A stretch of DNA of 64,000 nt from an uncultured Actinomycetes bacterium (GTDB lineage: Bacteria > Actinomycetota > Thermoleophilia > Gaiellales > JAICJC01). The stretch spans positions 65,286 through 129,285 of the forward strand of contig CAVSFZ010000026.1 of the NCBI GenBank assembly GCA_963727235.1, given 5' to 3'. Below are positions 16,811 through 55,416 of the stretch, in pieces; the stretch's first letter is position 1, and each line of letters starts with the position of its first letter. Both the position numbers and the translations under genes were made by a program. Below the pieces are notes generated by a model. It saw nothing but the letters and a program-made list of their open reading frames with translations. It was not told the origin of the DNA and ran no database searches.

Positions 16811-16843
16811 GTGAATAAAAGGTGCCTGGCACCTTTTATTCAC
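16811..16843. repeat. palindromic element, copy 1 (33-nt perfect palindrome); probable bidirectional terminator
   Basis: GTGAATAAAAGGTGCC-T-GGCACCTTTTATTCAC. The rluD stop TGA (16840-16842) lies inside it. An A-tract and a T-tract flank the GC core. Confidence 0.85.
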
Positions 16844-17727
16844 GGCCTGGCTGCGTTGAGGGCGGTGGCCAGGTCGGGGGGCAGCGGGGAGTGGGCCAGC
16901 ACCGGCTCACCCGTCCACGGATGCTGAAACGAGAGCTCGGCGGCGTGCAGGAACTGGCGCTCCAGGCCCAGCTCGGGGCCGTGGCCGTAGACGGGATCGC
17001 CCACCACCGGATGGCCGATGGCCTGCAGGTGCACCCGGATCTGGTGGGTCCGCCCGGTCTCGAGTTCGACTCGGAGGAGTGACCGGTCGGGCAGCGCTTC
17101 GATCAGCTCAAACCGGGTCACGGCTTCCCGCGGCACGTCGGTGTCGGTCGAAACCCGTGCCGGCTGTCGCCGATCGCGGCCGATGGGCGCCTCGATCCGG
17201 CCTGTGCGCGACGGCGGGCGGCCACGCACCAGAGCCGTGTACACCCGGCTGATCTGGCGGCGGCGCAGCTGCGACTGGAGCTTTCCCAAGGTGATCTCGT
17301 CCCGGGCGACGACCAGCAGCCCCGAGGTGTCTCGATCGAGCCGGTGCACGATCCCCGCTCGATCCTCAGGGCCGCCTCCGCTGCGGCCCTGGAGCACCTC
17401 CACCAGGGTCGGCCCGGTCGCTCCCGGCGCAGCGTGCGTGAGCATCCCCGCCGGCTTGTCCACCACCATCAGTCGGTCATCCTCGAACACGACGGGGACA
17501 TCCGGCAGAGGCCCCGAGTCCAGTTCGGGCGCCGCCGTCTCGGTGATTCCGACCGACTCCCCAGCCGTGAGCCGGTAGGACTTCGACCTGACCCGGCCGT
17601 CGACCGTGACCGCCCCCGCCGCGACCAACCGCTCCGCCGCAGCGCGGGTACCGACTCCGGGCTGCGCCGCCACGAACCGATCCAGCCGGACACCCTCATG
17701 CTCGGCGGTGACCATGTGGTCGGTCAC
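16840..17727 (-). CDS. rluD: RluA-family 23S rRNA pseudouridine synthase (RluD-like)
   Basis: S4 domain followed by the HRLDRDTSGLLVVA catalytic motif. 295 aa. GTGA overlap with the lspA stop. Confidence 0.9.
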   Translation of the reverse strand: MTDHMVTAEHEGVRLDRFVAAQPGVGTRAAAERLVAAGAVTVDGRVRSKSYRLTAGESVGITETAAPELDSGPLPDVPVVFEDDRLMVVDKPAGMLTHAAPGATGPTLVEVLQGRSGGGPEDRAGIVHRLDRDTSGLLVVARDEITLGKLQSQLRRRQISRVYTALVRGRPPSRTGRIEAPIGRDRRQPARVSTDTDVPREAVTRFELIEALPDRSLLRVELETGRTHQIRVHLQAIGHPVVGDPVYGHGPELGLERQFLHAAELSFQHPWTGEPVLAHSPLPPDLATALNAARP

Positions 17728-31524: not shown

Positions 31525-32721
31525 ATGCCTCGGAATCACCGCACAATTGTCTGCACAATCGTCCCCCGCTTCGCCTTGCGGGTGGCCGCCGGCAACGAGG
31601 GTCGCCTGGCCGATCAGCCGCTCGCACTGGGCCCCGAGCCCGGCGGCCCTCCCCACATCGGCGAGGCCAGTGCAGCCGCTGCTGCCCACGGAGTCCGCGC
31701 CGGCATGCGGGTGGGCGAAGCGATCGCCCGCTGCCCCCAGCTGCAGCTGGTAACGCCCGATCCTGGAGCGGTGGCCATCGCCAACGAGGAGTTGCTCAGC
31801 CGGCTGGAACACCTCGGCGCGGCGGTGGAACCACTCGCACCCGGCGCCTCATTGTTTGCCGCCGACGGTCTTACGCGGCTGCATCACGGCACCATGCGGC
31901 TCTTGCACACGGTCTCCGCCGCGCTGCCCACGGGAGGTCGTGTCGGAGCCGGGCCGGGCCGCTTCATCGCCCGGGCGGCGGCGGCCAAGGCCCGCCACCG
32001 GCAACCGTTCACCGTTGAGCCCGGTGCCGCCGCCGGCTTTCTCGCCCCGTTGGCCGTTGCCCAACTCGACCTCGAGCCGTCACTCTGTGCCCAGCTGACC
32101 ACGCTCGGAATCGCCACCATCGGCGATTTGGCGGCGCTGCCGCTGCCGGCGGTGGCCGATCGCTTCGGCCGGAGTGGAATCGAGGCTTGGCGCCTGGCAC
32201 GCGGCGAGGACGAAGCTCACGTGATCCCCCGGATGCCGCCCGAGCCGCTGCGCGAGATGATCGAGTTCCCCGACCCCGTCGGTGATGAGCTGACGCTGCG
32301 CGGCGCCATCGCCGTCCTGGTCGATCGGCTGCTGGCCAACCCCGCCCGCAGAGGCCGACCGGCTCGCTCGGTCACGATCTCTGCCAGGTTGGCGGCGGGG
32401 GGATCGTGGCGACGACCGATCGCACTTCGTGACGCCACTGCCGAGCCGCGCCGGCTGCGGGATGCCGTCAGCCCGCGGCTGACGGAACTGCCCGCGGCGG
32501 TCATCCAGCTCGAGCTGGAGCTGACTGAGCTGGCCCAAAGCGGGGCCCAGCAGCTGTCGCTGCTGCATCCGCCCGAAGAGCTCTTGCGCGAGCGGGCGGC
32601 CGAGGCGGCCAAGCAGGTGCGCGCCGGCGTGGGTGAGGGCAGCCTGTGGCGAGTGGTCGAAGTCGCACCGTGGTCACGGGTCCCCGAGGGGCGCGACCTG
32701 CTGATCCCGTTTGACGGTTGA
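31525..32721 (+). CDS. imuB: ImuB-like catalytically inactive Y-family DNA polymerase
   Basis: Overall Y-family layout, but the N-terminus IVCTIVPRFALRVAAG lacks the catalytic D.D/E acidic residues. It is SOS-boxed, and dnaE2 is nearby. At 398 aa it is short for ImuB. Confidence 0.75.
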   Translation: MPRNHRTIVCTIVPRFALRVAAGNEGRLADQPLALGPEPGGPPHIGEASAAAAAHGVRAGMRVGEAIARCPQLQLVTPDPGAVAIANEELLSRLEHLGAAVEPLAPGASLFAADGLTRLHHGTMRLLHTVSAALPTGGRVGAGPGRFIARAAAAKARHRQPFTVEPGAAAGFLAPLAVAQLDLEPSLCAQLTTLGIATIGDLAALPLPAVADRFGRSGIEAWRLARGEDEAHVIPRMPPEPLREMIEFPDPVGDELTLRGAIAVLVDRLLANPARRGRPARSVTISARLAAGGSWRRPIALRDATAEPRRLRDAVSPRLTELPAAVIQLELELTELAQSGAQQLSLLHPPEELLRERAAEAAKQVRAGVGEGSLWRVVEVAPWSRVPEGRDLLIPFDG

Positions 32722-33648
32722 CGGCTCCCACACGAAGCTTGCGACCGCCACCACCACCATCAGCAGCGTGGCGGCCAGCGCGACGTGCACTGCCACCAAC
32801 TGCCACGGGAGGCCGTTGCGGTACTGCACCTCCCCCACGATTGCCTGACAACCGAGCAGCACAACCGCTGCCAGCGCCAGCCGTGCCGGCACCGTATGCG
32901 CCGCGCGGCGCCACAGCCACACGGCCAGCACCACCAGCAGGACAGTGAAGATGGTCGCGATGCGGACATGCAGCCAGGTCGACCGGTAGAAGTTCCACAG
33001 CCGCTCGATGGGGGTGTCGGTGCTGCCCGGATGAGGGCCGGAGGCGGTCACGAACGCCCCGGTGGTGACCAGCGCGAGACCGCCGATCGCGGTCACCCAG
33101 GCCAGTCCACCCATGCGCCGATCGCCGAGCAGCGCCGGGCCTCCCCGGTCGAGTCGGACAGCCCGCACGGTCACCCACGTCCACACTGCCACCACCACCA
33201 TCGCCAGCAGGAAATGCGACATCACCAGGAACGGATTGAGATCGAGCGCCACGGTGAGCGCTCCCAGGGGCACCTGGGCGATCGTTCCCAACGCCGCGGC
33301 CGCGGCGGCCAGCCTGACACCGCGACCGAGCCCAGCGGTGCGTCGAGCCATCACGGCCGCGATCACCGTCACGACCATCGCGATCCCCGAGATCACACGG
33401 TTGGAGAACTCGATCAACGCGTGGCCGGACGCCTGAGGTACAAGGCTGTTGGCCTCGCAGGTGGGCCAGTGCGGGCAGCCGAGGCCCGAGGCGGTCAGCC
33501 GCACCAGAGCACCCGTTGTGACCACCAGCCACAGCAGCCCGAGCGAGATCGCGGCGACGTACATGAACGTGTGGGCCGACACCCCGCGGCGTGCGGTCAA
33601 CCCGATCGGAGGGCGAGGGATGTCGGCGTCGTCGACTGAGTGGGACAT
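32674..33648 (-). CDS. ctaA: heme A synthase (COX15/CtaA)
   Basis: LVRLTASGLGCPHWPTC motif and a multi-TM protein rich in His. I preferred the ATG at 33648 over the TTG at 33708. Confidence 0.85.
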   Translation of the reverse strand: MSHSVDDADIPRPPIGLTARRGVSAHTFMYVAAISLGLLWLVVTTGALVRLTASGLGCPHWPTCEANSLVPQASGHALIEFSNRVISGIAMVVTVIAAVMARRTAGLGRGVRLAAAAAALGTIAQVPLGALTVALDLNPFLVMSHFLLAMVVVAVWTWVTVRAVRLDRGGPALLGDRRMGGLAWVTAIGGLALVTTGAFVTASGPHPGSTDTPIERLWNFYRSTWLHVRIATIFTVLLVVLAVWLWRRAAHTVPARLALAAVVLLGCQAIVGEVQYRNGLPWQLVAVHVALAATLLMVVVAVASFVWEPSTVKRDQQVAPLGDP

Positions 33649-35916: not shown

Positions 35917-36267
35917 GTGCAGTGCAGCCATTGCGGAGGTGTGGTCGATCGGGAGTTCCGATACTGCCCTTGGTGCTCGATGGCGCAGGTCGGCAAGGCC
36001 GTCGCGCAGTTCCCTCCCCACCCCGAGGTTGACACTCCCGGTCGCGGGCTGCGCGTGTCGCGCTACTTCGATCCAGAGGTCGGCCCACTGCACACCCGCT
36101 TGAGCATCTACGACGCCGAGGGACGGGTCACCAGCGTGGTCGCGCTTGACGACGAGCACACCGCGGGGCTGTCCAAGTTCCTGCACACCCTGGCGGATGA
36201 CGCACCGACCGAGCGCATCGGCGACCCGTTGAAACGGTTGGTCGAGAGGCTCGATCCTCGGGGCTGA
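35917..36267 (+). CDS. zinc-ribbon-containing hypothetical protein (116 aa)
   Basis: GTG start. The N-terminal CSHCGG...YCPWC forms a four-Cys ribbon, followed by a globular C-terminal region. Confidence 0.5.
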   Translation: MQCSHCGGVVDREFRYCPWCSMAQVGKAVAQFPPHPEVDTPGRGLRVSRYFDPEVGPLHTRLSIYDAEGRVTSVVALDDEHTAGLSKFLHTLADDAPTERIGDPLKRLVERLDPRG

Positions 36268-36299
36268 CGCGCCGGCGGCCGCTTGGGTATCCTGCGGGA

Positions 36300-36554
36300 A
36301 TGGCGAAGCGAACGTCTGTTCGACAGATCGGCCTCCCCCGCAAGGTCAGGGTGATCTGCGACCGCGACGGCATCCCCACCGCCGTCGCCGATCGCTCGGT
36401 GGAGCATGTGCGCGACGAGTGGCGGGTGGATGAGGGCTGGTGGACGGGGAACAGGACGCATCGCCGCTATTTCGACCTGGTGCTTGAAGACGGCCGCAAC
36501 GTGGTGGTCTTCTGGGATCACCGCGGCCACCAGTGGTTCGGCCAGCGGGTGTGA
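36300..36554 (+). CDS. 84-aa protein resembling a stand-alone ImuB C-terminal module
   Basis: The segment EWRVDEGWWTGNRTHRRYFDLVLEDGRNVVVFWDHRGHQWFGQRV matches the GWW-x(n)-R[DR]Y[FY]-x(n)-G-x(n)-W pattern I recall at the C-terminus of long ImuB proteins. The stop TGA lies inside palindrome copy 2. Confidence 0.5.
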   Translation: MAKRTSVRQIGLPRKVRVICDRDGIPTAVADRSVEHVRDEWRVDEGWWTGNRTHRRYFDLVLEDGRNVVVFWDHRGHQWFGQRV

Positions 36555-36586
36555 ATAATTGGTGCCTGGCACCAATTATTCACACC
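36548..36586. repeat. palindromic element, copy 2 (39-nt perfect palindrome)
   Basis: GGTGTGAATAATTGGTGCC-T-GGCACCAATTATTCACACC. Contains the stop codon of ORF 36300-36554. Confidence 0.85.
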
Positions 36587-36935
36587 TCGGATCAATCACG
36601 GCTGGCGCGGCGGGCGGAGCGGAGGCGTGGCAAAGCCACGTTGAGCACCGCACCACCGCGTGGGACGCCGCCAGAACCGGCGCGGACCAGCCTCAGAGTA
36701 GGTGTGGCCGGCGCCTCAGTGAGACGCCGGCCACAGGGAGGGCCTGACGAAGACGACCGGGGTTGTCACTCCTGCTGGGGAGGCGTGATCGTCATCGCCA
36801 GACAAGGTGAATACTACGGGGTATTTGCCAAGATTTCACGGGTAGAAGTGTTACAGATCAGTCACAAAACACTCGCTAACCCCATTGCAAACGAATAATG
36901 GACAGACCGAAATAGGGCAGTTTCCAGATCCTGGC

Positions 36936-36965
36936 TTGACCGATTACGGCCACGTCTGGCATACT
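36936..36965 (+). promoter_or_regulatory. candidate promoter: TTGACC-N18-CATACT (TGg extended -10)
   Basis: Lies in a stretch that is ~49% GC by hand count (36841-36960). It is followed by the GGAGGGGG ribosome-binding site and ATGATG at 37010. Confidence 0.5.
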
Positions 36966-37009
36966 CGATCGTCCGACGCGTGTGCTTGGCTATCGCGTCG
37001 GAGGGGGTA

Positions 37010-37312
37010 ATGATGAGCGAGCCGGCAGCGTCCGTGGAGCACACAGTCATCACGTCCGAGGACGTCCTCGAGGATGTCGTGGCTGCGCCGCGCGCGTACA
37101 TGTATCAGGTGCATGTGCGCCGCCGGAGGGGATTCTGGAAGCGCTGGCAAGGACGGGTCGTAACCCGCGACCTGCAGGGCACCCGCAGGTTCTGGCCGTG
37201 GCGCATGAGCCATGATCGCGATCGCCTGGTGCAGCAGCTGTGGGAAGAGACGATGCGCGATATCCAGTGGCGAAACAGCGACACGCCGGTGGAGATCGTC
37301 GAGGTTTCCTAG
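37010..37312 (+). CDS. hypothetical 100-aa Arg/Trp-rich protein immediately upstream of dnaE2
   Basis: Good ribosome-binding site (GGAGGGGG-taATG). Sequence runs MMSEPAAS...VHVRRRRGFWKRWQGRVVTRDLQGTRRFWPWRMSHDRDRLVQQLWEE.... No family recognised. Confidence 0.5.
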   Translation: MMSEPAASVEHTVITSEDVLEDVVAAPRAYMYQVHVRRRRGFWKRWQGRVVTRDLQGTRRFWPWRMSHDRDRLVQQLWEETMRDIQWRNSDTPVEIVEVS

Positions 37313-37353: not shown

Positions 37354-40300
37354 ATGCAGTACCCAGAACTCCACGCCCACTCCTGCTACTCGTTTCTCGA
37401 CGGCGCCTCACAGCCTGAGGAGATGGCGATGCGCGCCGCCAAGCTGGGCTACTCGACGCTTGCGCTGACCGACCACGACAGCCTGTCGGGATCCCTGGAG
37501 TTCGCCAACGCCGCCCACGACGCCGGGCTGCGCCCCATCACCGGCTGCGAGCTGACCCTGGTCGACGGCTCCCACCTGACCCTGCTGGTCGAGAACGAGC
37601 ATGGCTACCGGAATCTGTGCCGGCTGATCACCGTCGCTCACCGCGACGATCGCCGAGCACCCAGTACCACGCTCGACCAGGTCGCCCGCCACGCCGAGGG
37701 GCTGCACTGCCTCTCCGGTTGTGCCCGCTTGGGCGCAGTGGCTCGGCCGATGGGCCGGGGGCAGGTGCGTGAGGCGGAGCGCATCGCCCGGAAGCTGCGA
37801 GGAATCTTCGGCCGTGACCGCTTCGCCATCGAGATCAACCGGCCCTACTGGCGCGGTGACGCTCGCCGCAACCGGCTTTTGACCGAGCTGGCCGGCGCTC
37901 TGCGAGTGCGCCTGGCCGGCACCGGCGACGTGCACGCCCACTCTCCCCGCCGGGCCTTTCTCCAAGACGCGCTGGTCGCGATCCGGTGCAACTCCACGCT
38001 GGACGCGAGCGAAGCAGAGCGACGGGGAAACCACGAGTCGGTGCTGCGCACGCCGGACGACGCTGCCCACCTGTTTTCAGCCGAGGCCACCCGCGGCGCG
38101 ATCGAGGTGGCCGATCGCTGTCGATTCGACCTGACCCGCGATCTGGGGTATCGCTATCCCGACTTCTCGGACACCGGAGAACCGGCGCAGGCCGTATTGG
38201 AGCAGCTGTGCCGAGCCGAGCTCGACCGCCGCTACGCCGGCACCGGCATGGTCGCCGAAGCACGTCAGCGACTCGAGCAGGAGCTGGGCTTGATTGCCCA
38301 TCACCAGCTGGCAGGGTTCTTCCTGCTCCACCGAGACATCCTCGAGATGGCGCGGGCGGTGGCGGTGCGCGTGCGCGGTCGCAGCGCCGGGCGCAGACTC
38401 CTCCCCCCCGGCCGCGGTCGCGGCTCCAGCGTGGGATCGATTGTGTGCTATCTGATCGGGCTGTCTCATGTCGATCCGGTGGAGACGCGCCTGTTCCTGG
38501 GCCGGTTCCTCTCCAAGGATCTGGCCAGCGTCCCCGACATCGACCTCGACTTCCCCCGAGACGTGCGCGAGGGGTTGATGCTGGACGTGATCGAGCGATA
38601 CGGATCCGACCACGCCGCGTTGGTGGCGGCGTTCCCCACCTACAAGACCCGGGGCGCGATCCGCGATCTCGGCAAGGCGCTGGCACTCCCGCAGGGCGAG
38701 ATCGAGCGGATGGCCCGGCTGGCCGACTCATGGGGCCGGATCGAGCCCGAGCAGGTGGAGGAGCTGCGCGGCCGTCTGGACGCGCCCCGCTGGAAGGCGT
38801 TCTCGTTTCTGATGGAGGAGATCAGCGGCCTGCCCCGCCACCTCTCCCAGCACTCCGGCGGAATGGTGATCTCGACCACCCCGCTGGTGGAGCTGGTGCC
38901 GGTGATCCCGGCAGCCATGCAGGGGCGCCAGATCTGCCAGTGGGACAAGGACTCGTGCGCGGATGCCGGATTTCTCAAGATCGACCTGCTCGGTCTGGGG
39001 ATGCTCTCTGCAGTGGAGGAGTGTGTGGATCTGATCGCCCAGTCACGCGGCGCGCCGATCGATCTCAGCCGAGTCGGATTCGATGATGCCGACGTTTTTG
39101 CCGAGATCCGCGCGGCCGACACGGTGGGCGTGTTCCAGATCGAGAGCCGCGCCCAGATGCAGTCGCTGGTACAGACCAAACCGGAGAATCTCGCCGACCT
39201 GACGGTGCAGGTGGCGCTGGTGCGACCCGGCCCGATCGTGGGCGATGCGGTCAACCCGTACATCAAGCACCGGCGCGCCCGGCGGGATGACCCATTCTTC
39301 GAGCCCCCCTATGACCACCGGCTGCTGGAGCCGGTGCTGAACGACACGCTGGGCGTGGTGGTGTTTCAGGATCAGGTGCTCGAGGTCGCGATCGCACTGG
39401 CCGGATTCACCACCGGCGAGGCCGAGAGCCTGCGCCGGGCGATGAGCCGCAAGCGCAGCCGTGAGGCACTCGAGAGCCACTGGATCCGATTCCGCGATGG
39501 ATCCGCCGAGAACGGGGTGTCCGAAGAGACCGCCCGCACGGTGTTCGACAAAGTGGTCGCCTTCTCGGAATTCGGCTTCCCCAAGAGCCACGCCGCCGCC
39601 TTCGCAATCCTCGCCTACCAGTCGGCATGGCTCCACCGCGCCTACCCCGCGGAGTTTCTCTGCTCACTCCTGAACGCACAGCCGATGGGCTTCTACCCTC
39701 CGGCAACGCTCTTGCGCGACGGTGAGCGGCGCCAGGTCGAAACCCGCCCGCCGGACGTCAACCTCAGCCTGGCCGCCTGCTCGGTGGAGGATCACGGCGC
39801 GGCCATCCGGATCGGGCTGGGCTACGTCAAAGGTGTCGGTACCCGCTCCGAGCTGCTGGTCTCCGAGCGCGACCGAAACGGGCCCTTCACCGATCTGGGC
39901 GACCTGGTGCGGCGCTCACCGCTTGCAATCGACCTGCTGGAGTCGCTGGTCAAAGCCGGCGCCTGCGATCGGTTCGGCGACCGCCGGCAGCTGCTGTGGG
40001 AGCTACGGCTGCACCGCGCCCCCGCGGGCCCCGAGCACGCTCGCCAGCTGGCACTGGCACTCGACTCCGCCCCCACCCCGAAGCTTCGGCCGATGAGTGA
40101 TTGGGAGCGGATGGTGGCAGACCACGAGACCATGAGTCTCACCACCGGCCCCCATCCGATGGCGCTGCTGCGACCCAACATCGCGGAGGAGATCCGCTCT
40201 GCTGCATCACTTCGCGACGGTACCGGCGGCCATGTGACGATCGCAGGGGTGATGGTTGCCCGGCAGCGGCCCTCGACGGCCAAGGGCATCGTGTTCCTCT

Positions 40301-40617
40301 TGGTGGAGGACGAGTCCGGCATGGTCAACGTGGTGGTGCCGGCAAAGATCTACGAGCGTGATCGGATCGCGATCCGATCAGAGCCGCTGGTGCAGATATG
40401 GGGTCGGCTGGAGCGTCGCAACGACACCCTCAACGTGATCGCCGAACGGGTCGCGGCGCTGTCACATGTGGCCAGGCCGGAGATCCGCGCCCAGGCGGAG
40501 CGGGCCGCCGCCCGAGCGGCAGGTACCGGGGCCGGGCAGGGCGGCCGGGTGGCCGACATGCGGGCGCTGAAGGCTGCGGTGCCACGCGGTAACAGCTGGG
40601 GCCAGGGACGGCGTTAG
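37354..40617 (+). CDS. dnaE2: error-prone DNA polymerase DnaE2 (ImuC)
   Basis: 1087 aa. PHP N-terminus MQYPELHAHSCYSFLDGAS. Second C-family alpha subunit in the window, SOS-boxed, with no tau/beta-binding C-terminal extension like that of dnaE. Confidence 0.93.
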   Translation: MQYPELHAHSCYSFLDGASQPEEMAMRAAKLGYSTLALTDHDSLSGSLEFANAAHDAGLRPITGCELTLVDGSHLTLLVENEHGYRNLCRLITVAHRDDRRAPSTTLDQVARHAEGLHCLSGCARLGAVARPMGRGQVREAERIARKLRGIFGRDRFAIEINRPYWRGDARRNRLLTELAGALRVRLAGTGDVHAHSPRRAFLQDALVAIRCNSTLDASEAERRGNHESVLRTPDDAAHLFSAEATRGAIEVADRCRFDLTRDLGYRYPDFSDTGEPAQAVLEQLCRAELDRRYAGTGMVAEARQRLEQELGLIAHHQLAGFFLLHRDILEMARAVAVRVRGRSAGRRLLPPGRGRGSSVGSIVCYLIGLSHVDPVETRLFLGRFLSKDLASVPDIDLDFPRDVREGLMLDVIERYGSDHAALVAAFPTYKTRGAIRDLGKALALPQGEIERMARLADSWGRIEPEQVEELRGRLDAPRWKAFSFLMEEISGLPRHLSQHSGGMVISTTPLVELVPVIPAAMQGRQICQWDKDSCADAGFLKIDLLGLGMLSAVEECVDLIAQSRGAPIDLSRVGFDDADVFAEIRAADTVGVFQIESRAQMQSLVQTKPENLADLTVQVALVRPGPIVGDAVNPYIKHRRARRDDPFFEPPYDHRLLEPVLNDTLGVVVFQDQVLEVAIALAGFTTGEAESLRRAMSRKRSREALESHWIRFRDGSAENGVSEETARTVFDKVVAFSEFGFPKSHAAAFAILAYQSAWLHRAYPAEFLCSLLNAQPMGFYPPATLLRDGERRQVETRPPDVNLSLAACSVEDHGAAIRIGLGYVKGVGTRSELLVSERDRNGPFTDLGDLVRRSPLAIDLLESLVKAGACDRFGDRRQLLWELRLHRAPAGPEHARQLALALDSAPTPKLRPMSDWERMVADHETMSLTTGPHPMALLRPNIAEEIRSAASLRDGTGGHVTIAGVMVARQRPSTAKGIVFLLVEDESGMVNVVVPAKIYERDRIAIRSEPLVQIWGRLERRNDTLNVIAERVAALSHVARPEIRAQAERAAARAAGTGAGQGGRVADMRALKAAVPRGNSWGQGRR

Positions 40618-53636: not shown

Positions 53637-53669
53637 GGTGAATAGCGGTGCCTGGCACCGTTATTCACC
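53637..53669. repeat. palindromic element, copy 3 (31-nt core, one G/A arm mismatch)
   Basis: G-GTGAATAGCGGTGCC-T-GGCACCGTTATTCAC-C. Each arm is one nt shorter than in the other copies. Confidence 0.8.
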
Positions 53670-53680
53670 CCGACCGCCCG

Positions 53681-53717
53681 GCGTGAATAAATGGTGCCTG
53701 GCACCATTTATTCACGC
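53681..53717. repeat. palindromic element, copy 4 (37-nt perfect palindrome)
   Basis: GCGTGAATAAATGGTGCC-T-GGCACCATTTATTCACGC. The TAA stop of the GNAT gene (53708-53710) lies inside it. Its centre is 46 bp from the centre of copy 3. Confidence 0.85.
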
Positions 53718-54511
53718 ATTTCCCACTGGGTGAGGGGTTCGAGGCGGGCGCCCAGCGCTCGGAGGAGCGCCGAGCCGTCCTCCCAGTCCTCCGGCATCAG
53801 AGCGGGCACGCTGATCCGGGTCGCCGGAAGGGCGCGGATCAGGGCGGTCGCCCGTCCCTGGCGACGGACGGCGGGATCGACGGCCAGCGCGTACAGCCAC
53901 AGCTTGCGGCCCCGCACCTTGGTCACGGCCACGGTGTCGTCCCCCAGGGCATACGCCGGCAGCTGCAGCAACGTCTCGGGCTGAAGCTGCCAGGGAGCGT
54001 CCGGCCACCCCCAGTCGCGCAGTCTGCGCACCGCCTCGGCCGGCGCAATCGCCTCCGCGCGGGAGGATCTGCGCAGCGACTGGCGTCGCAGGCTCCAACC
54101 CACCAGCTTGCGGCGAAGCTCGAAGCCGTGCTTTTGGTACAGCGCGATCGCGCCGGAGTTCTGCTCCAGCACCTCCAGCCCCACCTGCTCGGCGCCGGCC
54201 TCGCGCAATGACTCGAGTGTCCGCTCGAGCACCGCACTGCCAATCCCCCGGCGGCGGTGTGCGATCACCGTACCCTCCCCCCGGATGCTGCCCCGCGATC
54301 CCCGCACCGCTCCCAGGCAGAACGCAACCAGGGCGCCCTCCGCGTAGGCGCCCCAGGAGAGCGCCATCGAGACTCCGGTCTCCCGCAGATACACCGACAG
54401 CGCGACCTCATCAAGGGCCGCCGGAACGGGGTAGTCCGAGAAGGCATCCTGCTGGCACTCCACGATCCGAGAGAGCTGCTCACGCTCGAGCGATCGGAGC
54501 TCCACCGCCAT
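53708..54511 (-). CDS. GNAT-family N-acetyltransferase (two-domain)
   Basis: The ATG at 54511 gives MAVELRSLEREQL.... It carries the acetyl-CoA motif HRRRGIGSAVLERTLESLREAGA and YQKHGF. The upstream track extension is junk. Confidence 0.7.
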   Translation of the reverse strand: MAVELRSLEREQLSRIVECQQDAFSDYPVPAALDEVALSVYLRETGVSMALSWGAYAEGALVAFCLGAVRGSRGSIRGEGTVIAHRRRGIGSAVLERTLESLREAGAEQVGLEVLEQNSGAIALYQKHGFELRRKLVGWSLRRQSLRRSSRAEAIAPAEAVRRLRDWGWPDAPWQLQPETLLQLPAYALGDDTVAVTKVRGRKLWLYALAVDPAVRRQGRATALIRALPATRISVPALMPEDWEDGSALLRALGARLEPLTQWEMRE

Positions 54512-54516
54512 CGGGC

Positions 54517-55416
54517 TTACGCCCGCGGATGCGCCTTGAAGTACGCCTTGCGCACGTGGTCGGCGGAGACGTGCGTATACACCTGGGTGGTCTCGATGCT
54601 CGCATGCCCGAGCATCTCCTGGACGCTTCGCAGATCGCAGCCGCCCTCGATCAGATGGGTCGCGAACGAGTGCCGAAGCGTATGCGGTGTGACTTCCTTG
54701 GTCACACCGGCCGCGCGGGCGTGGTCTCGCACCAGCTGGAACACCGCCTGGCGGGTGATCCCCTGGCCGCGATGGTTGAGGAACAGCACGTCGCCACGCT
54801 GCAGTCGCCCCAGGTACGGCCGGCCGCGCTGAAGGTACAGGCGGGCGGCCTCGGTGGCGCTCTTGCCCATCGGCACCACCCGCTGCTTCGCGCCCTTGCC
54901 CATGCACCGCACCATGCCCTCGCCCAGATCCACATCTGACACCCGCAGCGACACCAGCTCCGAGACGCGCAGACCGGCGCCGTACAGGAGCTCCAGCATC
55001 GCCCGATCGCGCAGGCCCCGAGGGCTTCCGTCGGGGCGGGTCACGATCGCCTCAGCCTCGGCCTTGGTCAGGGGTTCGGGCAGACGGCGTCCGAGTCGCG
55101 GCAAGGTGACGCTGCGGCCGGCATCGGCCCGCGCCCCCTCCCGTGCACGATGCTTGAGGAATGCCCGCACTGCCGCCAGGCGCCGGCGAACCGTTGCCGG
55201 AGAAAGACCGCGATCCGACAGCGCCACCGCATAGTCGTCCAGCACCGAGACCTGCAGCGTGTCGGGATCGGCGTGCTCGGTGAAGTCGCCAAGGTCGATC
55301 AGGTCACGGCGATAAGCCTCGACCGTGTGCGGCGATGCCCCTCGCTCGAGTTGCAGGTGGGTCAGAAAGTCTTGAAGGGTGGCGTCGTACGAACTCATAC
55401 CGGGGAGGTTCGTCAC
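54517..55416 (-). CDS. xerD: tyrosine recombinase XerD
   Basis: N-terminal SAM-like core-binding domain and the C-terminal catalytic residues ...PHTLRHSFATHLIEGGCDLRSVQEMLGHASIETTQVYTHV. Confidence 0.9.
   Translation of the reverse strand: MTNLPGMSSYDATLQDFLTHLQLERGASPHTVEAYRRDLIDLGDFTEHADPDTLQVSVLDDYAVALSDRGLSPATVRRRLAAVRAFLKHRAREGARADAGRSVTLPRLGRRLPEPLTKAEAEAIVTRPDGSPRGLRDRAMLELLYGAGLRVSELVSLRVSDVDLGEGMVRCMGKGAKQRVVPMGKSATEAARLYLQRGRPYLGRLQRGDVLFLNHRGQGITRQAVFQLVRDHARAAGVTKEVTPHTLRHSFATHLIEGGCDLRSVQEMLGHASIETTQVYTHVSADHVRKAYFKAHPRA

Follow-up and report, generated by a model that had tools for sequence, protein, structure and literature searches.

A short palindromic repeat family at gene ends of Gaiellales and its copy over the stop codon of an ImuB-C-like gene

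Actinobacteria of the order Gaiellales abound in soil, but most of what is known of them comes from metagenome-assembled genomes (MAGs), and to our knowledge nothing is known of how their transcripts end. In a stretch of 64,000 nucleotides from such a genome (the window), a perfect palindrome of 19+1+19 nt, GGTGTGAATAATTGGTGCC-T-GGCACCAATTATTCACACC, occupies positions 36548-36586 and covers the stop codon of a small gene upstream of dnaE2. What this palindrome is, and whether its arrival determined where the gene ends, are the questions raised by the locus. The 39-base palindrome is a copy of a previously undescribed family of short palindromic repeats, and the model that fits it best is that it most likely folds into a hairpin marking the end of the gene.

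The 21-nt core of the palindrome, allowing up to three mismatches, was identified at two places in the 64-kb window, against none in 100 dinucleotide-preserving shuffles, and exact matches to the 13-nt centre GGTGCCNGGCACC were found at four places. Four copies of the family were identified where none was expected, all of them intergenic (Table 1), and copies 3 and 4 form a doublet with their centres 46 nt apart. This corresponds to a density of about four copies per 64 kb, or about 60 per Mb. Four of the five GTGAATA and all four TATTCAC sequences in the window lie inside elements, with no intragenic single copies. The proposal of the preliminary description that 36548-36586 is one copy of a repeated palindromic element was thereby confirmed, both by the four window copies and by the many found outside it. 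It had also been described as the longest copy (39 nt); its arms are indeed the longest of the four in the window, but elsewhere seven copies have 19-nt arms and one has 20. Similarly, the spurious reading frames attributed to the palindrome were called, at 36559..36747 (+) and 36108..36575 (-), but with TTG and not ATG as the start codon.

Table 1. Features of the palindrome locus, its repeats and its neighbours (window positions unless a locus is named)
Feature	Position	Strand	Remarks
Palindrome copy 1	16811-16843	none	AAA/TTT type, 16-nt arms; between rluD-like stop and rpsB start
84-aa gene	36300..36554	+	Free-standing ImuB C-terminal domain (putative); conserved; between imuB and dnaE2 in relatives
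Palindrome copy 2	36548-36586	none	19-nt arms; variable block ATT/AAT
Family core of copy 2	36551-36583		GTGAATA-ATT-GGTGCC-T-GGCACC-AAT-TATTCAC; GGT/ACC pairs outside it belong to the flank
TGA stop of the 84-aa ORF	36552..36554	+	Inside 5' arm of palindrome copy 2
Linker TCGGATCAATCACGGCTGGCGC	36587..36606	+	Common to the window and the palindrome-rod composite in L074
5'-truncated rod copy	36607..36704	+	Without about 40 nt of the 5' arm; keeps apical domain and 3' arm ending CCAGCCTCAG
Native GC-rich hairpin	36703..36735	+	Compensatory changes in palindrome-free L087/L088
Promoter-like TTGACC-18-CATACT	36936..36965	+	In AT-rich island; conserved in palindrome-free orthologous loci
Conserved ORF, about 100-110 aa	36980..37312	+	Upstream of dnaE2
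dnaE2-type gene	37354..40617	+	DNA polymerase III alpha subunit
Palindrome copy 3	53639-53671	none	16-nt arms, one G.T pair; short GC/GT type, arms one nt shorter; first half of doublet
Palindrome copy 4	53681-53717	none	AAT/ATT type, 18-nt arms; core 53683-53715
Full 131-nt rod	L003:3168-3298	+
Full 131-nt rod	L047:1670-1800	+
Full 131-nt rod	L063:838-968	-
Full 131-nt rod	L070:1417-1547	-
Full 131-nt rod	L074:5303-5433	-
Full 131-nt rod	L077:1740-1870	+

An exact-pattern scan of public genomes, with one genome per species, gave at least 86 loci, and all loci among the matches listed came from MAGs of uncultured Actinomycetes, Gaiellales or Thermoleophilia. The family consensus is GTGAATA-N2-3-GGTGCC-W-GGCACC-N2-3-TATTCAC, a unit of 31-33 nt in which the N2-3 blocks are complementary between the arms. 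Based on 129 core copies from these loci and the window, complementarity between the arms is 86-100% up to 15-16 nt from the centre and drops beyond that to a background of 0.2-0.37. The central base was T in 72 copies and A in 57, and never any other. Two arm lengths occur, GTGAATA-AC-GGTGCC (15 nt, usually preceded by G) and GTGAATA-NNN-GGTGCC (16 nt). The variable block reads AC, ATT, AAA, AAT, CC, ACC, TCC and others among copies, and of 102 tabulated matches to the full pattern, 84 had it mirrored on the opposite arm. In the small sample of arm mismatches, four were G.T or T.G and seven A.C or C.A, so that no sense-strand excess of G.U pairs was seen.

Since arm complementarity ends 15-16 nt from the centre, the three extra GGT/ACC pairs of copy 2 lie outside the element and are flanking bases which pair by chance; the outward extension that had been counted as part of copy 2 does not belong to it. 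A search of Rfam with the whole window, with 36400-37100 (E<=1) and with four related loci gave no real match for the palindrome or for the rod described below, the sole matches being to two unrelated eukaryotic families at chance level (E about 0.5-0.6). No tRNA or tmRNA was found, viral contigs scanned with the family pattern yielded no matches, and a full-text literature search for the palindrome sequence returned no relevant paper. Other AT-containing palindromes were noted at equivalent gene-end positions in genomes without this family. In L018, the palindrome CCCAATTGACATCC-GTGG-TGGATGTCAATTGGG lies on the reverse strand about 40 nt past the stop of the gene ending ...GGSG, and in L155 the palindrome GGTGCCAGGCAC-TTCA-GTGCCTGGCACC, with the GGTGCC/GGCACC core in a different arrangement, lies just past the stop of the small ORF.

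The small gene that ends on copy 2 looks like a detached C-terminal domain of ImuB, judged from homology. A profile of its family matched 1172 cluster representatives, mostly free-standing proteins of 80-110 aa. In P0075 (525 aa) and P0106 (484 aa) the 84-aa domain was found at the extreme C-terminus, behind an IMS (Y-family polymerase) domain, and the label "ImuB-C-like" given earlier to the ORF is justified by this homology to full-length ImuB. A PDB sequence search and NCBIfam, both with the 84-aa protein, gave no match. In L089-L091, imuB (398 aa) comes first, then the small ORF and dnaE2, with stop abutting start. The ImuB of this clade is split into a 398-aa IMS protein and a separate gene of 84-89 aa which corresponds to the C-terminal domain of the 484-525-aa ImuB. 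Based on alignment to L087, imuB of the window lies at 31526-32722, with ctaA and other ORFs inserted between it and the small ORF.

The preliminary description had proposed that insertion of the element may have set the C-terminus of this protein (..WFGQRV). This was contradicted by its relatives, in the comparison that the description itself had put forward as a test. All 19 close database homologues stop in one and the same column of the alignment, ...W[FY]xQR[VGSA]. A metagenome scan provided 80 further loci with the 84-aa ORF, of which 77 were examined (four hit an early stop in the frame-walk), and the palindrome core was absent throughout all 77. About 75 of these element-free orthologues could be compared, and nearly all end ...W[FYWL]xQR[AGSV], a few varying by a residue (...QRGA, ...AHR); many of the metagenomic orthologue stops overlap the start of dnaE2 (GC ATG A). 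A native GTG TGA ending was identified in four element-free orthologues (L094, L095, L097 and L173). Because element-free orthologues end alike, four of them in GTG TGA, the GTG TGA of the window is probably native, with the GTGA of the element overlapping it. On this comparison the element shares, or has overwritten, at most the last codon and the stop, and the 84-aa protein is unchanged in length.

The same was observed at other loci. L019 (...GGSE, in-element TAA) and its element-free orthologue L018 (...GGSG) encode proteins of the same length, as do L029 and L042 (...IIGRE) and L081 (...IIERT), and the RluD tail in the window, ALNAARP, is within the AR+0-2 range of 120 orthologues. Protein length was unchanged in every comparison made, these and the 84-aa ORF included.

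The use of the element as a stop codon was examined across the family. Incoming gene ends were defined as ORFs no shorter than 300 nt, with a GC3 of 0.8 or more and a stop within 120 nt of a copy, and 134 were scored. The TGA of the element (GTGAAT) was the stop of 35 of these ORFs, and its TAA or TAG (GTGAATAA) that of 24 (23 TAA, one TAG), of which 16 end in Gly-Glu (GGT GAA TAA). In-element stops therefore totalled 59 of 134, all inside the 5' arm; in 73 ORFs the stop lay upstream of the element, mostly within 15 nt, and only two read through it in the third frame. On a per-copy basis and with strict criteria, 43 copies lay between convergent genes, 48 had a gene end on one side and 23 had none. 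The window copies agree with this. As had been noted in advance, the TGA at 36552-36554 of ORF 36300-36554 is formed by bases 2-4 of the core GTGAAT, and the rluD-like gene at copy 1 (16840-17727 (-), PseudoU_synth_2 and S4 domains) likewise ends on the element's TGA, with the start of rpsB on the other side. Copy 4 provides the TAA stop of a GNAT-domain gene (53708-54907 (-)), and the copy 3/4 doublet precedes the start of a metalloenzyme gene.

Random insertion does not account for the 35:24:2 frame bias, nor for protein length being kept exactly. Long C-terminal extensions may be selected against, the element may be installed in a targeted or conversion-type manner, or older copies may decay in situ; bearing on the last, L081 retains TAACG...CGTTAT around its stop. 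A microhomology model, in which a native TGA or TAA pairs with that of the element, was found to be insufficient, as the TAA register accounts for 24 of the 59 in-element stops, whereas TAA makes up only 10 of the 75 stops outside elements. In near relatives, some gene calls read through or frameshift at the element: P0018 (136 aa) continues ...QRRVNHWCLAPII... and P0169, an RluD homologue of 94% identity, ends ...PGRE. These anomalies are probably long-read assembly indels near the palindrome, and illustrate how such a repeat can spoil gene annotation.

As RNA, copies of the family were predicted to fold with -21 to -31.5 kcal/mol (z = -5.8 to -9.4) on either strand, copy 2 reaching -31.5 kcal/mol (z = -8.2, either strand). 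In the 8 nt after GGCACC there were 3-6 T residues (mode 4), against a background of 15.5% T in the genome set. On each strand, stop codons (TGA and TAA) stand in two reading frames of the A-rich 5' arm. A transcript of either strand would form a hairpin of 15-18 bp, in which a U-rich stretch (UUAUU or UUUUAUU) comes after the GC-rich top and matches the A-rich stretch before it, the layout of a bidirectional terminator or 3'-end protector, and the stops in the A-rich arm would allow the element to sit directly on a gene end and supply its stop. Based on this geometry, its compensated variation and the position at gene ends, we infer an activity in termination or stabilisation, and the family is, in our estimate, a reasonably probable case of a gene-end RNA hairpin serving as bidirectional terminator or as stabiliser or protector of mRNA 3' ends.

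Several observations limit the terminator reading. By the standards of E. coli the U-tract is weak, and mycobacterial RNA polymerase, according to the title of one paper (PMC3993855), requires a U-tract at intrinsic terminators. The lack of a sense-strand G.U excess among the few arm mismatches also speaks against it. A consensus terminator scan found nothing at the palindrome site, because the full stem swallows the T-rich stretch. Since there are only about four copies per 64 kb, the family is not the general terminator of these genomes. A plain terminator needs no invariant sequence blocks, so a sequence-specific partner or a copying process is implied.

Orthologous sites were compared between genomes. 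Where flanks were at least 82% identical, the element was present in both genomes; at 81% or less, where empty and filled sites were compared, it was usually absent from the partner. Orthologous copies were far better conserved than their flanks, and where they differed, either the central base was flipped (L052/L080) or the variable block was swapped on both arms (window and L092; L029 and L042). Subtype spectra were genome-specific, with AC in 28 of the 33 copies of one MAG and AC plus AAT in another. Seventeen doublets with a centre spacing of 39-63 nt were identified, nearly always consisting of one ATT-type and one AC-type unit; a doublet can fold as one long hairpin on one strand, and each unit is itself palindromic, so that its orientation is undefined. 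The comparisons point to concerted evolution or to copying that keeps the repeat population uniform; transposition or ectopic gene conversion could be responsible.

The strongest rival, which we consider rather unlikely, is that the family is purely selfish, a miniature mobile element of REP/REPIN- or MITE-like kind, whose single-stranded DNA hairpin is moved by a RAYT-type or other transposase encoded elsewhere; its gene-end sites would then be tolerated insertions and any effect on RNA incidental. The high copy number, the genome-specific subtype spectra and the presence/absence differences at 81% identity or less would all be expected of such an element, the 17 short-spacer doublets recall REP doublets, and built-in stops would render insertions at gene ends harmless, REP ends being known to provide stops (PMC3733652). 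No transposase was seen beside the copies or between them, however, and Pfam searches of the ORFs bracketed by copies gave housekeeping domains only. The genes bracketed by two copies at other loci include those for GNAT, molybdopterin oxidoreductase, PurD, glycosyltransferase and peroxiredoxin proteins. A tblastn search with IS200 and RAYT queries gave no match at E<1, a weak test in that the queries were approximate and the search covered about 0.78 Mb of sampled genomes. The GTAG/CGTC tag is absent, orthologous sites retain their copies at identities as low as about 82%, which means that movement is rare, and the 35:24:2 phase bias with exact protein length is hard to obtain from untargeted insertion.

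Copying anchored at stop codons was considered as a further, more speculative reading, to which we give little credence: the palindrome, with or without the rod, would form "gene-end cassettes" read by a sequence-specific factor. A cassette would overwrite a gene's final one or two codons along with its stop, or do so in both members of a convergent pair, with protein length kept. Were this true, an uncultured actinobacterial order would punctuate its genes with a copy-pasted module and not with individually evolved terminators.

A duplex-DNA site for a dimeric protein (a global regulator, a nucleoid protein or similar), whose two-fold symmetry the palindrome would reflect, is very improbable. 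The GTGAATA and GGTGCC blocks are conserved across species well beyond the needs of a hairpin, which favours such a site, but the variable block is mirrored between the arms and the arm length shifts by 1 nt on both sides together, which would change the half-site spacing by 2 bp; for these reasons a hairpin is preferred. The copies are moreover at gene ends, not in promoter regions, and the adjacent genes (rluD/rpsB, GNAT, imuB-C, purD and others) are unrelated in function. Inverted pairs of DNA uptake sequences doubling as terminators, as in Neisseria or Haemophilus, share the occurrence of one sequence across many species as inverted repeats at gene ends, but this explanation is scarcely credible here, as solitary arms are essentially never found (in the window, the GTGAATA and TATTCAC counts given above) and the density of about 60 per Mb is far under that of uptake sequences. 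Readings as integron attC sites, CRISPR or operators were rejected on the grounds of no integrase or array regularity, housekeeping neighbours and mirrored arm covariation.

Copy 2 does not stand alone. Compared with L087/L088 (72% protein identity, no palindrome), the window has about 170 extra nt between the stop and the native hairpin, consisting of the palindrome, a 20-nt linker and the segment 36607-36704. This segment is 90-98% identical to stretches in other MAGs and is a truncated copy of a second repeat, a 131-nt rod, which is more unusual than the palindrome. It scored 66.6 bits with covariance model R1, against 136-154 bits for the full copies. The full copies fold as one long rod of 47 pairs, with compensatory double changes at 11 of them, and in six of six the sense strand was 7-17 kcal/mol more stable than the antisense strand. 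No Rfam match was found for the rod. It was always located 9-45 nt 3' of a palindrome copy, and in five of the six full copies and in L012 the TGA of the convergent gene is the reverse complement within the rod-terminal CCTCAG.

Collapsed or truncated rods were identified in the window, L092/L093, L012 and L056. In the close relatives L092/L093 (87-93% DNA identity) a palindrome occurs at the same site as in the window; it is of AC/GT type with a different linker, and the rod has collapsed to its outer arms and is of another stem subtype. The composite was therefore exchanged or re-acquired at this one site, as the palindrome type, linker and rod subtype all differ.

The preliminary description had placed the palindrome at the border of an AT-rich spacer, with the GC content falling steadily towards a promoter-like island. 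About 150 nt of GC-rich structured sequence, the truncated second repeat and the native hairpin, in fact lies between them. The fall is not steady, with 74-75% GC over 36600-36750 and a minimum of 42% at 36800-36900, but a promoter-like site was found at its end (Table 1). The native hairpin, GTGGCCGGCGCCTCAG-T-GAGACGCCGGCCAC, and the next 65 nt or so (CAGGGAGGGCC...CTGCTGGGGAGGCGTGATCG; together 36703-36800) are conserved with L087/L088, although identity elsewhere is 78-83%; the region could act as a leader, or as an RNA regulating the downstream ORF and dnaE2. With this hairpin already in place after it, the element at 36548-36586 may be redundant.

The AT-rich island (36780-36965, 42% GC) lies upstream of the conserved ORF of about 100 aa, for which no family match was found, and of dnaE2. 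The TTGACC/CATACT pair of -35 and -10 sequences also follows the small ORF in many metagenomic orthologues (L094, L101, L103 and L109-L111). Within the subclade, dnaE2 thus appears to have its own conserved, putative promoter. Because the promoter island is present in orthologous loci without the palindrome, it predates the insertion. At the equivalent of about position 36900, extra DNA was observed in L093 (3549-4816, about 1.27 kb) and in L092 (3553-4315, about 0.76 kb), where dnaE2 is apparently interrupted; the minus-strand ORFs of this DNA (356 and 203 aa) had no Pfam match, and neither did the extra ORFs near the site in L087. The intergenic region at this point seems to be an insertion hot spot.

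Taken as a gene-end hairpin, the palindrome would have arrived at the locus together with the truncated rod, between the ImuB-C stop and the older hairpin and promoter. The composite would have been added to an already split imuB-C/dnaE2 junction with the protein unaltered, and the spread or homogenisation of the family would have occurred by copying, either transposition or ectopic gene conversion.

Among known systems, the closest in position are the TRIT motifs, 147 palindromic, sequence-conserved and mostly bidirectional terminators in Mycobacterium whose centre lies at about -8 relative to the stop (Gardner et al. 2011, PMC3152330) and reported as restricted to that genus (PMC3152330). 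The present family shares with them the phylum Actinomycetota, a palindromic form conserved in sequence and structure, mostly bidirectional, and a narrow placement overlapping the stop or CDS end, here with 59 of 134 stops in the 5' arm and most others within about 15 nt upstream. A copy number of the order of a hundred or more per genome is a further trait in common. Unlike TRIT, which was compared by description, its consensus being given only as a figure, the family is a different, shorter and perfect palindrome in Gaiellales/Thermoleophilia that itself carries stops in two frames.

REP sequences are similar in other respects. ORFs next to GTAG REPs often take their TAG stop from the end of the repeat (Di Nocera et al. 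2013, PMC3733652), and CGTC REPs lack a known transposase (PMC3733652); Actinobacteria are not mentioned in the text of that paper. Like REP/REPIN elements, which are extragenic palindromes of 20-40 bp thought to act as RNA hairpins, the family (31-33 nt) is of high copy number, extragenic, often in doublets and provided with termini that give stops. Unlike them, it has no GTAG/CGTC tag, being a perfect palindrome tagged GTGA...TCAC at both ends, and no RAYT was found in the sampled DNA. With canonical bidirectional intrinsic terminators it shares the succession of A-rich stretch, GC-rich stem-loop and U-rich stretch on both strands and the location between convergent genes and at operon ends. 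Its U-tract, however, is short and interrupted (3-6 T in 8) where the canonical one has 7-9 nt, the whole A/U region is base-paired, and the sequence itself is conserved and repeated. The family is best read as REP-like in genomic behaviour and TRIT-like in position.

At the locus examined, the imuB-C/dnaE2 junction was already split, with a putative promoter of its own, before the repeat came, and the ImuB-C protein was left unaltered. For annotation, the motif is a landmark of true gene ends and operon boundaries, and a warning of spurious ORFs starting inside it and of frameshifted read-through calls. A sequence-conserved palindrome bearing stop codons would be the second actinobacterial case after the TRIT of Mycobacterium, and would lend weight to the view that a dedicated terminator motif, possibly assisted by a factor, is in use in some high-GC lineages.
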